Made by a program: the position numbers and the translations under genes. Source: an uncultured Chthonomonadaceae bacterium (GTDB lineage Bacteria; Armatimonadota; Chthonomonadetes; Chthonomonadales; Chthonomonadaceae). From it: 64,000 nucleotides of DNA. This document shows positions 9,761 through 63,711 of the stretch, one piece after another (within the stretch, counting starts at the first letter, position 1; each line of letters begins with the position of its first letter). The notes beneath the pieces were generated by a model. The model was not told the DNA's origin, made no database searches, and saw nothing but the letters and a program-made list of their open reading frames with translations. The DNA lies in contig CAWIEK010000053.1 in the NCBI GenBank assembly GCA_963835065.1, positions 1 through 64,000 on the forward strand. The letters are read 5' to 3'.

Positions 9761-9831
9761 ATGATGAGCGATGAATGATGAGTGATGAATCGAGAGATCT
9801 CATTCATCATTCATCATTCATCATTCATCAT
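9761..9831. repeat. Inverted pair of heptamer arrays (ATGAATG / CATTCAT)
   Basis: ATGATGAGCGATGAATGATGAGTGATGAA...CATTCATCATTCATCATTCATCATTCATCA; overlaps the stop codon of the HAD gene. Confidence 0.85.
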
Positions 9832-10487
9832 TTTCTGTTGAATACTTCCTCGAAGTGGGCCAGTAAATCGTTGGGCGTGGCGTAGACGGCAATGGCCTGC
9901 GCCAAATCTTCGCGTTTCCAGCCGCCGGTCAGCAATCCAATCGCGCGAAGTCCGGCTTTTTGGGCCGCTTCCATGTCGTAGGGCGTATCTCCGATCATCA
10001 GGCACTCCTGCGCTGTCAGTCCCGCCCGTTCCAGCGCGGCCTGCACAATATCCGGGTCGGGCTTGGAGCGGGGCGCATCTTTGGAAGACGCCTTGTTGTC
10101 GAAGAACTCCTCTAACCCTACTTGTTTCAGCGCGGCAGTGGTATCTTCCTCCCCGGAAGTGGCGGCAACAATGAGAATTTTCTCATTTTTTATTTTCAGC
10201 AACAATTCCCGCGCCCCGGGCGTCGGCTGCAGGCGCGGCACATACTGCTGAAGGTAGATTTCCTTGCGCCGCGCGGCCAATTTCTTGCCCTGTTCGCTTT
10301 CGCTGTCTATACCCGCCACTTCCGGCAGCAGTTTGTCGCCGCCCTTGCCGATCAAAGGCCGAATCTTCTCAAAGGGTATATCCAGCCCCTCTTCGCGGAA
10401 CGCCTGCGCAAACGCCTGCGCATTGGCGTCGTTGCTGTCCACCAGCGTCCCGTCTATATCACAAATCAAGCCTCGAATAGCGGGCAT
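9828..10487 (-). CDS. HAD-superfamily hydrolase (family IA phosphatase)
   Basis: DIDGTLVDS, ATS, KPDP and IGDTPYD motifs. Confidence 0.92.
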   Translation of the reverse strand: MPAIRGLICDIDGTLVDSNDANAQAFAQAFREEGLDIPFEKIRPLIGKGGDKLLPEVAGIDSESEQGKKLAARRKEIYLQQYVPRLQPTPGARELLLKIKNEKILIVAATSGEEDTTAALKQVGLEEFFDNKASSKDAPRSKPDPDIVQAALERAGLTAQECLMIGDTPYDMEAAQKAGLRAIGLLTGGWKREDLAQAIAVYATPNDLLAHFEEVFNRK

Positions 10488-10507
10488 GGCAATCTCCCAA
10501 TTCTATA

Positions 10508-10612
10508 GGTATTCAGGTATTCGGGTGTTCGAGTGGTTCCCTCTCGTGCTAAAGCAAATATGTTACTCTTGTATTGTCCTGAACACTTGAACACCCGAAT
10601 ACCTGAATACCT
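10508..10612. repeat. Inverted pair of octamer arrays (GGTRTTCR / YGAAYACC)
   Basis: GGTATTCAGGTATTCGGGTGTTCGAG ... CTGAACACTTGAACACCCGAATACCTGAATACC. Confidence 0.85.
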
Positions 10613-11165
10613 ACTCCAGCGCGAACCACGCTTTCACCGGCTTTTGAAACCAGAAATAAGCGAAGGCGGCGGCTATAACGACCCAAATAACTGTGGCAAC
10701 AGTGAAGCCGTGCAGCAGGAAAGGCAATAAGGCCATGCCGACTAGCACGACCGCATTAGCCGTCCACGCCCAGCCGCGCTGCGTCCAGGTAAAATACGCG
10801 ACAATGCACAAAATGACGGCGACGGGAAGGAGGGTCAGCGTATAGACAATGGACACAAAGGTTCCCGCCGCCGACTGGACAGCGTTCGTGCCTTCCACGT
10901 TTACTTTGGGTCGCGTCGTCCAGGCGGCGATTACAGACCAGAGCGGTACGGCAAGCGCGTACAGCGCGTCGAAAACCGTCATCGCTGTGATGATGGCCGG
11001 GCGCTGTTCCAGGGCTTGCAGTTGCTGGTTGGAGCGCGTGACGTAGTTTTCCTCCTGTCCCACCTGTCCGCCATACGCCGTCAGGGGCGTGTGGCAGTTG
11101 GCGCAGGTCGCCATCGTGTTATCGTTGATCTCGCCGCAGTGTTTGCATTGCACGGTATCGGGCAT
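10611..11165 (-). CDS. Membrane protein with N-terminal zinc ribbon
   Basis: CKHC-x10-CANC followed by about 4 hydrophobic helices. Confidence 0.75.
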   Translation of the reverse strand: MPDTVQCKHCGEINDNTMATCANCHTPLTAYGGQVGQEENYVTRSNQQLQALEQRPAIITAMTVFDALYALAVPLWSVIAAWTTRPKVNVEGTNAVQSAAGTFVSIVYTLTLLPVAVILCIVAYFTWTQRGWAWTANAVVLVGMALLPFLLHGFTVATVIWVVIAAAFAYFWFQKPVKAWFALE

Positions 11166-11321
11166 GTTCGGTTCCGTCCTGTAGGGATAACGAAATTTAC
11201 TAAAATATGTTCGCAAAAATGTTTTTCAAGCCTCAGCGTTAGGACGGTGAAAACTGTGACTAGGTTCACCGAAAAAGATTCAGGGCAAGATAGCCTTTGT
11301 GAAGCGCATACCGGGCACAAT

Positions 11322-61304: not shown

Positions 61305-61415
61305 TCTTTTCGTTTCTTTCGTTTCTTTCGCGGTTCCTAATCTCTTCTTTTCTCCTTTTCTTCTTTTCTTTTTTTCTCTGTGCCCCCTCTGTGTCTCTGT
61401 GCCTCTGTGGTGGAA
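61305..61415. repeat. Half copy (D) of the nested palindromic element
   Basis: TTTCGTTTCTTTCGTTTCTTTCGCGGTTCC ... CTCTGTGTCTCTGTGCCTCTGTGGT; no matching left arms seen. Confidence 0.8.
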
Positions 61416-61416
61416 G

Positions 61417-61980
61417 TTACTCCTGCGCCGTAACTTCCACTACCAAAGCGCCGCGCCCGATCTGCTGCTTTTTCTCTACTGTTAATGACGTAACGGTTCC
61501 CGCAAACGGCGCTTCCAGCGTCGTCATAACTTTCATGGCTTCCAAAATTACGAGCGGCTGCCGCGCTTCCACCTGCTGCCCGACTGTCACCAGCACATCG
61601 GCGACAATGCCGGACATGGGCGCGGTTAAAACGCCCGATGCCGCCGTGTCTTTCCGTCCCGAAGCGCGCGTTGCAGGGACACTGAACGTATAAGCGTTGC
61701 CGTCATAAAAGAACGCGGCATCACTTCCCGAACGCGCAAAGGGGACGCGAAAAACCCGCGACGGCCTTATTCCCAATGATTCCGGTGCAGCCAAAGCGGA
61801 CGGCAAGACATTGGCCTCTTGCGAACCATCCACAGCCGTCACCTGTAAAACATCGTTGGCGTGGCGGATAGCCGTAATGCGGTGTTCAGAGCCGTCCGGC
61901 AGGCGAACGCGCCAGCCGTCGCCGTCCGGCTCTACATCCAGCGTAACCCGTTCATCTCCAAATTGCCGTTCTATCTGCAT
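61417..61980 (-). CDS. Biotin carboxyl carrier subunit
   Basis: LTAPMSG, ILEAMKV (biotin Lys), EAPFAG. Confidence 0.92.
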   Translation of the reverse strand: MQIERQFGDERVTLDVEPDGDGWRVRLPDGSEHRITAIRHANDVLQVTAVDGSQEANVLPSALAAPESLGIRPSRVFRVPFARSGSDAAFFYDGNAYTFSVPATRASGRKDTAASGVLTAPMSGIVADVLVTVGQQVEARQPLVILEAMKVMTTLEAPFAGTVTSLTVEKKQQIGRGALVVEVTAQE

Positions 61981-62126
61981 ATCAATTCCGCCGTGACCTT
62001 CCGCGTCAGGATGTCAGGAACACTCAACGAGTAAACTGTTCCCATGAGCCGAGTCGTGAACGACCCGTCTAAAGGGTGTTCCGCCAGCCAATCTGCGACC
62101 GGAAACCTTATGTTGTTGGGCTTCCC

Positions 62127-63675
62127 TTACACGTTGCGCCAGGAACCCAATTGCTGCCAGGGATTGGTGACTGGTGGCTGGTGATTGGTGGTTGGCATTT
62201 GACGTGTTGAGGACGTTGCCGTTGCTGTGACGGCTTCCGCCACCAGTGCCAACAGTACCTCCGGCGGTATCTCCGTTGCGGGTTTCCAATCGGAAAAATG
62301 GTCGCGCAAAAATTGCGTGGACAAATCGCCAGCTTGAAAGGCGGGGTGACGCCCAATCGCCAGCAGATACGCGATATTGGTTTGGATGCCCAGTACGGCG
62401 AATTGCCTCAGCGCCTGCTCCAAGCGGGCAAGGCTTTCCTGCCGCGTCGCGCCCGTTGCAATCAGTTTCGCCAGCATCGGGTCATAATAAGGCGAAACTT
62501 CGCCGCCACGCTCCACGCCCGCGTCCACGCGAATTCCCGGCCCGCCCGGTTCCTGCCACTGCGTCAGAACGCCAACGGAAGGCATAAAGCCCGTTGCCGG
62601 GTCTTCGGCATAAATACGCGCTTCAATCGCATGGCCGGACGCGCGTATATCTTCCTGCGCAAAGGGGAGGGGCTTGCCGTCCGCAATGTCCAATTGCAGG
62701 CGTACCAGGTCCAGGCCGGTAATCGCTTCCGTAACGGGATGCTCCACTTGCAGGCGCGTATTCACTTCCAGAAAGTAAAAGGCGGCTTGATCGGCTTCGC
62801 TTTGATTATGCGCTTGATTGTCTGCGCTGTGCGGGGTCGGTTCCAGCAGAAACTCCACCGTACCCGCGTTCACATAACCTGCCGCCCGTCCCGCCGTCAC
62901 CGCCGCGTTTGTGATTCGCGCCCGGAGTTCCGGCGTCAGGATTGGAGACGGACTCTCTTCCATGATTTTCTGGTGGCGGCGCTGAATGGAACACTCGCGT
63001 TCATACAGATGGACGACATTGCCCTGCATGTCGCCAAATATCTGTACTTCAATATGACGTGGACGGGCTAGATAGCGCTCCAATAGCAGCCTGTCATCGC
63101 CAAACGCGGCCTGCGCTTCCCGCCGCGCTTCCACAATGGCATCCGCCAGTTGATCGCTTTGCGTAACCACGCGCATACCCCGCCCGCCGCCGCCCGCCGC
63201 CGCTTTTACCAACAGCGGCAAGGGAATCAGCGCGGCTTCGGCCAACAAACGCGCGTCGCTTTGATCGTCGCCATTATAGCCCGGCACAACGGGTACGCCC
63301 GCCTGCTGCATCAAGCGCTTGGCCGCAATCTTATCCCCAAGCCGCCGTATCACGCCCGACGGTGGCCCGACAAAGATTAACCCGGCTTCCTCACAGGCGG
63401 CGGCAAAATCCGCGTTTTCCGACAAAAACCCGTAACCCGGATGAACCGCGTCCGCCCCACCCGCCTTTGCCGCAGCCAGCAAATTGGCGATGTTCAGGTA
63501 GCTGTCTTTGGCCGGGGCCGCGACCAATGCAGTACGCTTCCTCCGCCAAACCCATATACAGCGCGTCCCGGTCCGCTTCCGAATACACGGCCAGCGGCGT
63601 AATGCCCGCTTCCCAGCAGGCGCGTATGATGCGAACGGCGATTTCGCCGCGATTTGCAATGAGGAGACGGTTCAT
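62127..63675 (-). CDS. Biotin carboxylase subunit (methylcrotonyl-CoA carboxylase alpha-like); indel at ~63523
   Basis: [62 protein letters not shown]. Confidence 0.93.
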
Positions 63676-63711
63676 AGGGTTTTAGGGTTTTAGGGTTTTA
63701 GGGTTTTAGGT
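63676..63711. repeat. AGGGTTTT x4 octamer array abutting the biotin carboxylase start codon
   Basis: AGGGTTTTAGGGTTTTAGGGTTTTAGGGTTTTAGG. Confidence 0.9.

Follow-up and report, generated by a model that had tools for sequence, protein, structure and literature searches.

The genome of the uncultured Chthonomonadaceae bacterium investigated here harbors about 1,900 dispersed repeat elements that are, on balance, probably non-autonomous, REPIN-like mobile hairpins, whose five-core arms would bind a pentamer of the four-helix-bundle family PF05635 and whose three-core arms would serve a GxxExxY protein with a nuclease fold. An element spans about 120 nt and comprises a G-rich arm, a family-specific spacer of about 55 nt and a C-rich mirror arm; 992 of the 1,931 elements counted genome-wide are single-armed. 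The arms are tandem arrays of 7–9-nt units, not palindromic REPs, and a few units recur at hundreds of sites in the genome. The inverted doublet, its preferred spacing and its hairpin fold match those of a REPIN. Arms are conserved with few deviations, while spacers are looser: their identity is 51% in the AGTAGTC family (30% shuffled) and 35–38% in three other families (30–34% shuffled). The score for compensatory pairing inside spacers was not higher within than across elements in six of eight families.

Exact arrays of at least three copies occur 1,330 times at period 7 and 123 times at period 8, compared with 31, 32 and 6 times at periods 5, 6 and 9, and an order-5 Markov simulation of the genome yielded none at periods 7 and 8. 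Inverted array pairs 40–60 nt apart number 270 (9.9 permuted), direct pairs 3 (9.4 permuted). The excess of periods 7 and 8 and the inverted pairing, which an initial annotation had seen in the window (the whole 64,000-nt stretch of DNA analysed), thus extend to the entire genome. Within the window, 18 arrays have period 7, 12 have period 8 and 4 have period 9, where 20 order-3 Markov simulations gave no more than 0.05 for any of these periods. All ten units and five inverted pairs named in that annotation are present where it had placed them, and the pairs form long stems of −44.6 to −71.2 kcal/mol when folded as RNA. Its claim of a constant period has to be abandoned, given that the same protein subfamily has arms of 7-, 8-, 9- and 10-nt units in other phyla.

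The elements of the window are located at gene junctions or in coding sequences. Matched pairs are found at 9760..9832 (AATGATG left arm mirrored by the right arm across a 9-nt loop), at 10507..10612 (8-nt GGT(G/A)TTCA arms, family spacer), at 47105..47221 (8-nt GGTGTTCA arms, family spacer), at the lspA-lgt junction (AGGCATT, 28453..28570) and between the mreB stop and the mreC RBS (five-core AAGGATG, 41438..41567). The overlap with gene ends that had been proposed holds for the stops of HAD (9828-9830, minus-strand gene) and lspA (28555-28557), which lie within arms, and for the mreC RBS and the biotin carboxylase ATG (63673-63675, minus strand), which abut arms, the latter a perfect five-core 8-nt TAGGGTTT arm on the plus strand (63675..63710); at the stop of the mreD-like gene merely a two-unit AAGGATG remnant ends (42931..42946, plus strand). 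Solo arms comprise a left-type GGTGTTCA arm with a decayed neighbor directly upstream of a minus-strand start (16421..16496, plus strand), a perfect five-core AGTTGAT arm of 30 nt (36992..37021, plus strand) and a left-type 8-nt arm 9 nt past a thiolase stop (57647..57681, plus strand); two right-type remnants, GCAATCG and TTCATCC, lie at 34304..34348.

Further features of the window go beyond the first reading. Three-core elements of 8/9-nt units are located at 21737..21870 (CACGG, 9 nt, with inner CACGGAT arms; GxxExxY class), at 27256..27549 (nested, CACGGGGAA outer and 9-nt inner arms, a long hairpin downstream of lgt), at 32908..33202 (an onion-like element upstream of ileS, in which three-core CACAGAG arms enclose GAAGAAAA and 9-nt arms) and at 61308..61409 (three successive units that form the right-hand arms of a CACAGAG onion element). 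Pairs of unlike units combine a five-core AAGGATG left arm with pyrimidine-rich 8-nt right arms between two plus-strand genes (19125..19221), and AGGGAAA left with CTATCAA right within the 3' part of ORF 49396-51681 (51511..51596, plus strand). Arms also lie within coding genes, namely a right-type arm read in frame inside the same ORF (50399..50431, plus strand), a heptamer arm in the 3' end of the biotin carboxylase gene accC (62162..62195, minus strand) and, in ileS, a short GATTGCC-family arm read in frame (32089..32107, minus strand) and an insertion described below.

The polarity of the arms is strict. The left arm always represents the same strand of its unit (e.g. 97:2, 71:1), the left-then-right order holds in 688:4 cases, and the arrays have a fixed start and end phase; three adjoining heptamer arms with different units of right, left and right type (25065..25172) are a rare exception. 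Copy numbers are capped as well. Among the arms of the 13 heptamer families, 1,131 have two cores, 497 three, 429 four, 939 five, 41 six and 3 seven, a 23-fold drop from five to six, although four cores are commoner than five in two of the 13 families; the three 8/9-nt families comprise 191 arms with three cores and a single one with four. Variant units are mirrored in both arms, in 31 of 34 possible cases in the AGTAGTC family (4.8 shuffled) and in 20 of 33 in the AGGCATT family (4.0 shuffled). This cap, the fixed end phase, the polarity and the mirrored variants support the earlier argument against plain slippage. Polymerase slippage has been proposed for the general heptamer excess of bacteria (Mrazek 2007, cited in PMC4679880), longer arrays in other genomes document that it acts, and template switching could supply inverted copies with mirrored variants, which selection would trim. 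The process predicts falling lengths, random phase and strand order, and site-specific units, but a five-core peak, a fixed phase, a 688:4 order and reused units are observed; the falling lengths, free end phase and missing strand order of a slippage-born simple sequence repeat are not what the arrays display. Slippage is already contradicted in this genome by the cap, the polarity and the shared spacers. Retention as G-quadruplexes, the interpretation given to the four-unit mode in Xanthomonas (PMC4692102), was rejected as a general explanation, since four GGG tracts occur in only 365 of 2,332 heptamer arrays and most units are unable to form such a structure. We consider an origin by slippage or G-quadruplex retention highly improbable.

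The initial annotation had mentioned similar arms around four-helix-bundle and GxxExxY genes elsewhere. Both families are located outside the window, and this link holds for six of six genes in this genome: three of three PF05635 and three of three GxxExxY genes lie inside such arms (judged by eye, some arms decayed). The three PF05635 cassettes are situated between protein genes, not in rRNA genes, and the arm class follows the gene family, with five cores around PF05635 and three around GxxExxY. Among solved structures, the PF05635 protein matches PDB 2GSC (five chains, E 1.5e-18), and the closest solved member of the family is a homopentamer (PMC4990558). In its homologue Avd all five protomers bind an RNA stem-loop (bioRxiv 2023.10.23.563531); the match to bAvd is weak (E 6e-5). 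A sequence search with GxxExxY returned no solved structure, and its predicted model (pLDDT 94) resembles Cas4 and lambda exonuclease.

The idea that the arrays are emptied flanks of such cassettes could not be upheld. The spacers are unlike cassette interiors, as 334 heptamer spacers match the six interiors no better than a reversed control and the cognate cassette scores higher for only 7 CACGG-class spacers; 1,931 elements contrast with only 6 genes; and five longer orthologous alleles carry neither gene (among the ORFs listed, by eye). For these reasons the elements are not emptied cassette flanks. For the two commonest pairing or solo units, AGGCATT and AGTTGAT, the assembly (92% complete) contains no cognate gene.

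A screen of 5,775 called genes for enclosing inverted repeats revealed no transposase with these arms among the 51 matches listed, which were judged by their N-termini and, for 11 picked ones, by Pfam, the home-made gene caller having overlooked at least one small gene. Genes of PF05635 and PF13366, not RAYT (Y1/HUH) genes, are what the arms flank. Three Y1_Tnp genes with inverted flanks are present, and a Y1 (IS200/RAYT-like) transposase might move the elements, the PF05635 and GxxExxY genes being cargo captured between arms. An IS200/605-type insertion would resemble what is seen at the insertion sites, namely a core-like word at some empty sites and no detectable target-site duplication (n=383; 3-mers 43 vs 41.8, 4-mers 17 vs 14.1 and 6-mers 3 vs 1.5 shuffled), and array-rich genomes without PF05635 exist. 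The flanks of the Y1 genes, however, are non-periodic and unlike the arms, and genes carried as passive cargo would not retain a single core for each protein subfamily in different phyla, nor would five-core and three-core arms be sorted according to gene family, which makes this mover improbable.

The distribution across related genomes, which are not independent of each other, connects arrays and genes: a period-7 AG pattern reaches at least 10 per Mb in 21 of 49 PF05635-positive and in 3 of 72 negative genomes, and is higher in the positive genomes in 12 of 15 families. CACAGAG arms are present in 7 of 15 GxxExxY-positive genomes, two of them with one match only, and in 0 of 16 negative ones. 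One protein subfamily keeps one core across phyla, upstream of 51 and downstream of 43 of 78 loci (3.3 expected; the motif was chosen post hoc); the closest homologue of the C8 protein, in the congener G002 (71% identical), is without this motif. The five-core cap is lineage-limited and not universal: 19 of the 63 heptamer arrays that accompany 80 homologous genes in other phyla are longer than five periods, and of 25 array-rich genomes only 11 have a six-to-five pattern ratio of at most 0.33, whereas it is at least 0.5 in 10. Several observations run counter to the mobile-hairpin reading: 28 of 49 gene-positive genomes are array-poor, the five-core cap is not general, the two commonest units lack a cognate gene, the core motif is missing from the closest homologue of the C8 protein, and the congener G001 (97% complete) exhibits 201 pattern matches and paired arms with no PF05635 match.

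The relatives were sampled over 1.32 Mb out of 7.5 Mb for G002 and 1.08 Mb out of 6.6 Mb for G001. Both unit switching and empty alleles, which the initial annotation had expected of a mobilising mechanism, were found: 116 of 179 sites have a different unit in G002, 15 the same unit and 48 none; the orthologous mreB-mreC junction of G002 lacks the AAGGATG pair. In the examples inspected the flanks are conserved up to the element edge, and in clean empty alleles arms and spacer are both missing. Within the genome, arms layer like onions. Outer arms are purer than inner ones (0.029 vs 0.043 mismatches per base, n=237, p=6e-4), the order of units is consistent (e.g. 13:2, 8:0, 7:0), and matched units are commoner in the outer pair than in the inner one (9 vs 1 in four-arm elements; 12 vs 4 and 22 vs 8 in three-arm elements). 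This layering would suit arms written in place, with a protein guiding a host polymerase or reverse transcriptase. Starting at nicks in both strands outside a resident element, the enzyme would copy a single template into five-core arms, so that older content becomes enclosed by new arms. Unlike-unit pairs keep the left-then-right order at 312:4 and cover 108 unit combinations, the mirrored variants fit a single template, and the homologue Avd serves a reverse transcriptase (bioRxiv 2023.10.23.563531). Such writing is nonetheless doubtful, as inner arms could merely decay as passengers, clean empty alleles have lost the spacer too, and no link was seen between the arms and either of the two reverse transcriptases of the genome. 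Sites with differing arms in this genome and G002 have spacers no more alike than random ones (15.8 vs 15.0 ± 0.8, n=24), which gives no support to rewriting around a retained spacer at congener distance. Both reverse transcriptase genes reside on other contigs than the three PF05635 genes; one lies beside cas1, and the second resembles what we take to be a retron-type enzyme. A link to diversity-generating retroelements was dismissed because no reverse transcriptase adjoins the PF05635 genes.

The single-copy ileS gene illustrates the layering within a coding sequence. Its 110-nt compound insertion (31332..31441, minus strand) consists of two left arms, AGGGATA outside AGGGAAC, followed by right arms; G016 has no insertion here, G001 has one that keeps the frame, and G002 has other units, and the extra arm lies outside the arm shared with G001, in accordance with writing in place. 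As assembled the insertion is out of frame by one base. A second break is a one-base difference absent from the contigs of three runs, and a close strain has a longer, frame-keeping version of the arm at 32089..32107. The frame shift is most likely an assembly error, because the assembly has indel errors, although G002 is also shifted there and none of the contig pieces listed spans the site. Arms enter proteins in frame, IleRS included: a comparison with the proteins of G001 found 25 in-gene elements that preserve the frame and 2 that shift it (3 rows that are intergenic by eye were dropped). Removal of out-of-frame inserts at the RNA level was rejected in view of this ratio and of element-free frame changes, of which 43 were counted in 460 kb of 456 genes (some twice via antisense ORFs).

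Elements occupy 894 of 3,692 co-directional junctions, and 603 of 1,248 scored elements start at most 10 nt from a stop. Both values would agree with a role in which, as in ORF-bearing 23S rRNA intervening sequences (IVS), paired arms are RNase III stems or PF05635 sites that cut or regulate operon mRNAs and spread by gene conversion with no dedicated mobiliser. In the Coxiella IVS that contains an S23p ORF, heptamer repeats lie at the RNase III site (PMC4990558). Of the pairs free of stops, 9 of 63 matched hairpins lie in coding sequence, fewer than the 81 of 141 unlike pairs, a comparison confounded by spacer length. Conservation is poor for a regulon, because sites are often empty and units mostly different in congeners, and an RNA-level role would cover retention, but neither the precise duplication-free insertion nor the copy cap. 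We regard it as unlikely to be the primary explanation; as a side effect it is compatible with mobile hairpins.

For the mobile hairpins we propose that the five-core arms are putative binding sites of a trans-acting PF05635 pentamer, each protomer of which would read one core on single-stranded DNA or RNA; this would account for a fixed core with a period of 7–10 nt. Three-core arms would serve the GxxExxY protein. The whole hairpin may be copied or excised and then inserted again at a pre-existing core-like word, so that resident elements would become hot spots and be replaced or layered. For the chemistry, the pentamer would recruit a host enzyme, its homologue Avd being a non-catalytic partner; in the three-core class the GxxExxY nuclease would supply it. 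Further points weigh against REPIN-like hairpins: the divergence of the spacers far exceeds what recent copying of whole elements predicts, and single-point insertion alone leaves the purer, more often matched outer arms unexplained.

Heptamer repeats also constitute the STRR units of cyanobacteria. MITEs and Rickettsia palindromic elements are short and gene-less, have inverted ends and insert into proteins in frame, like the elements described here; MITEs share the terminal inverted repeats, but here there is no target-site duplication and, among the matches listed in the screen, no cognate IS transposase with the same ends. REPINs and RAYTs (Bertels and Rainey 2011, PMC3116915) agree in the inverted doublet, fixed spacing, conserved arms with looser spacer, decayed singlets, hundreds of extragenic copies and a rare protein gene with that repeat on both sides. 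They differ in that the arms here are capped tandem arrays, the flanked genes encode PF05635 and GxxExxY proteins instead of RAYTs, and many unrelated units coexist, layer and enter coding genes. The GGGAATC repeats of Xanthomonas (Rehm et al. 2015, PMC4692102) are heptamers with a mode of four units and 70 inverted pairs, with the G-rich strand placed directly behind stops and, ahead of starts, in antisense orientation; XCC0516, the solved pentamer, is likewise encoded by X. campestris. The array grammar is already in print for this one unit, interpreted as a G-quadruplex and, in the available text, with no protein or mobility link. ORF-bearing 23S rRNA IVS with S23p/PF05635 (Warrier et al. 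2016, PMC4990558) share the gene inside terminal inverted repeats, 5' heptamers and a long stem, whereas the present elements occupy mRNA operons and coding genes and are mostly gene-less. The TAACTGA repeats of Beggiatoaceae (MacGregor 2015, PMC4679880) are intergenic heptamers in two to six copies, oriented to gene starts and forming in-frame peptide runs in proteins; they are reported almost exclusively as direct repeats, and the available text reports no mechanism or protein partner. Avd (bioRxiv 2023.10.23.563531, PMC10053308) is a homologous four-helix-bundle pentamer that binds structured RNA, but the PF05635 gene here stands alone between repeat arms. An open-access literature search (main texts) found no paper tying PF05635 or GxxExxY genes to dispersed repeat elements. 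New are the copy caps, the unit swapping at orthologous sites and the onion layering.

In a broader and more tentative scenario, the arrays would belong to a widespread class of bacterial selfish elements that lack a transposase of any known family, in which a ring protein would count cores with one subunit for each (five for PF05635, three for GxxExxY) and direct a host enzyme to install mirror arms at or around resident copies; this might yield the heptamer excess, the ORF-bearing rRNA IVS and the in-frame loops in essential proteins, with Avd as a domesticated member. If true, the mobile hairpins would represent a mobile-DNA system without a recognised transposase, in which two puzzles meet, 7-nt repeats as the commonest long simple repeats of bacteria and the function of S23p/four-helix-bundle proteins. 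Direct biochemical tests can build on the five-core cap, on a core that is specific to the subfamily while its period is free, and on the three-core class around GxxExxY. Present at about a quarter of co-directional junctions and as loops of 10–60 residues in hundreds of proteins, the elements shape both operons and proteins.

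Every array named in the initial annotation was located in the window, which covers positions 1-64,000 of contig C53 of genome G000, together with its five inverted pairs; in total the window holds 18 arrays of period 7, 12 of period 8 and four of period 9, compared with at most 0.05 in simulations. In the whole assembly (8.0 Mb, 57% GC, 92% complete), there are 1,330 exact period-7 and 123 exact period-8 arrays of at least three copies; periods 5, 6 and 9 are represented by 31, 32 and 6, respectively. An order-5 Markov simulation of the genome yielded zero exact arrays of periods 7 and 8. 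A mismatch-tolerant genome-wide scan returned 2,332 arrays of period 7 with 119 distinct heptamer units, 591 of period 8 and 179 of period 9. The arrays group into 1,931 elements, 109 of which have an exact flank in common with another element because contig stretches are duplicated. Near-identical long duplications between contigs C43/C69, C57/C58 and C57/C36 suggest either a mixture of strains or duplication in the assembly. At window 37485-38140, 5.5 tandem copies of a 120-nt repeat run across two overlapping minus-strand ORFs and correspond to a 40-residue coding repeat of TPR-like appearance.

A complete element consists of a left arm, a spacer and a mirror right arm, each arm being an array of 7-9-nt units. 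Inverted pairs spaced 40-60 nt apart occur 270 times versus 9.9 with permuted arm identities, so that the pairing first noticed in the window is a genome-wide property; direct pairs at the same spacing show no excess (3 vs 9.4). Altogether, 1,132 of 3,102 arrays belong to an inverted pair within 200 nt. The same unit strand, usually the G-rich one, nearly always occupies the left arm (37 of 41 families), arms of unlike units keep this strand order too (312 left-right vs 4 right-left), and the phase of arm start and end is fixed. When arms of 13 heptamer families are sorted by their number of cores, from two up to seven, the counts are 1,131, 497, 429, 939, 41 and 3, the 8-nt AGAAAAGG family likewise peaks at five, and three 8/9-nt families (CACAGAG, CACGG) comprise 191 three-core arms and a single four-core arm, with the core length derived from the same data as these counts. 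An origin of such capped and oriented arrays by slippage or G4 is hardly credible.

Matched elements mostly measure 100-125 nt, a search for target duplications at them revealed none, and in the two largest families variant units are mirrored in both arms. The spacers (about 55 nt, 44% GC) of the AGTAGTC family resemble one another (51% vs 30%), those of three other families hardly do so; an ATGC word marks one spacer end across families (50/70, 19/60 and 14/39 vs 6.6% shuffled). The spacers are not cassette remnants, and the proposal that the arms are emptied flanks of small mobile cassettes is not supported. Multi-arm elements are layered with a consistent unit order, their outer arms being purer than the inner ones and the outer pair more often matched.

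The comparison of orthologous junctions revealed both unit-switched and empty alleles in the congener G002 (1.32 Mb compared): among 179 sites, 116 carry a different unit, 15 the same one (in one case a coding repeat rather than an arm) and 48 no called array, 26 of the latter being cleanly shorter. The window's element at the mreB-mreC junction is absent there. The respective numbers for the congener G001 (1.08 Mb compared) are 25, 1 and 75. Some empty alleles retain a single core-like word at the junction (few cases, by eye). In orthologous examples the flanks agree up to the element edge, arms and spacer both differ, and spacers at different-unit sites are no more alike than random, thus indicating that whole elements were exchanged; that the arms are instead written in place is unlikely. 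One orthologous site, G000:C59:39880 in the genome under study and locus L033 in G002, documents arm-by-arm turnover: the outer left arm is common to both, and the differing new arms were added inside in the former and outside in the latter.

Based on a home-made gene caller with reliable stops and less reliable starts, 1,054 elements lie between co-directional, 194 between convergent and 181 between divergent genes, and 367 within ORFs; 894 of 3,692 co-directional junctions bear one. Elements inside genes translate to recurring peptides; unlike-unit pairs predominate among them (93/188 vs 12/500 matched pairs), a bias that is largely due to stops in many left arms. Of 27 cases compared with G001 proteins, 25 preserve the reading frame; frame errors in the assembly occur about once per 10 kb. 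The single-copy ileS gene (window 29820-32984, minus strand) is split over three frames, the first break being one base near window 32350 that is missing from contigs of three runs and the second a 110-nt element insertion. This ileS loop is empty in genome G016, contains an in-frame AGGGAAC arm in G001 and other units in G002; the genome under study combines the AGGGAAC arm of G001 with an outer arm and right arms. The G002 gene is likewise out of frame at this site, with a different 71-nt element. The frame change near the 5' end of the biotin carboxylase gene (window 62127-63675, minus strand) is probably an assembly indel.

The window is devoid of PF05635 (four-helix-bundle) and GxxExxY (PF13366) genes; the genome harbors three TIGR02436/PF05635 and three GxxExxY genes. 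By eye, all six are located between a G-rich arm and its mirror arm, in agreement with the suggested link, PF05635 with five-core-class 7/8-nt units and GxxExxY with three-core-class units. The same layout was seen by eye in 13 PF05635 loci (ten from relatives), less clearly in three more, and in many of 16 GxxExxY loci. The PF05635 gene on contig C8 (G000:C8:32005-32313 region) has AGTAGTC as its cognate unit, and the GxxExxY gene on C39 has CACGG arms. In other phyla, homologues of this C8 protein have an array on one side in 67/80 and on both sides in 46/80 cases, with periods 7 to 10 around a common core. In a comparison of 121 genomes from the phylum, 21/49 with a PF05635 gene and 3/72 without one reach at least 10 matches per Mb to a period-7 AG pattern. 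In G024:C3:264478-266382 (loci L130, L164) a PF05635 and a GxxExxY gene lie less than 2 kb apart, each with its own repeat class.

Five further small genes lie in long inverted flanks of their own (G000:C49:487331-487735, C42:76421-76894, C51:103020-103472, C49:523718-524347, C70:4941-5528). One is a DUF559 gene, three belong to Y1_Tnp, and the last, of 195 aa and without a Pfam match, is bordered by 11-nt repeat arms and perhaps represents an additional gene-plus-arms class. Mobilization of the elements by Y1 transposases acting in trans is very improbable. The genome also encodes two reverse transcriptases (L151, G000:C49:681660-682277; L152, G000:C50:52695-53327), one directly upstream of cas1; the other, which we take to be retron-like, adjoins BRCT-like and XisI-like genes (by eye).

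PDB entries 2GSC and 2RLD, each with five chains, match the C8 protein; according to PMC4990558, 2GSC forms a homopentameric toroid (original paper cited in PMC10053308). All five protomers of the PF05635 homologue Avd reportedly contact an RNA stem-loop, whose bases are flipped into crevices between protomers, and Avd is described as doing no chemistry (bioRxiv 2023.10.23.563531). A role of the elements in RNA processing, with spread by conversion, appears quite unlikely. Twelve residues are conserved in 92 PF05635 sequences; they include three glutamates and a tyrosine, so that a catalytic activity is conceivable. The GxxExxY model resembles Cas4 and lambda exonuclease.

From these sequence patterns we predict, with slightly better than even confidence, that the elements are non-autonomous hairpins comparable to REPINs. 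The pentamer would sit on five cores of a single strand, one core per protomer, and the GxxExxY protein on three; cutting and joining would fall to the GxxExxY nuclease or to an enzyme of the host. Insertion beside core-like words would turn resident elements into hot spots, which is proposed to account for element exchange and layering. Several observations argue against the REPIN-like reading. The five-core cap is strong in the genome under study and G002, but other genomes often contain long arrays; paired heptamer arms occur in G001, in whose whole genome no PF05635 gene was found; many PF05635-positive genomes are array-poor; the commonest units of the genome under study lack a cognate gene in the 92%-complete assembly; and the spacers do not derive from the cassettes. 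Paired AGGAGAA arms are common in G001, which has six GxxExxY matches.

Parts of the system are already described, i.e., the array grammar for one unit in Xanthomonas (PMC4692102), heptamers of the Coxiella S23p intervening sequence (PMC4990558), oriented heptamers in Beggiatoaceae (PMC4679880) and the doublet logic of REPINs (PMC3116915); we found no open-access paper linking PF05635 or GxxExxY genes with dispersed elements. The elements work most like the REPIN system, yet depart from it in defining features, as they do from MITEs, ORF-bearing IVSs and DGRs. It is conceivable, though we lean against it, that they represent a categorically new class.
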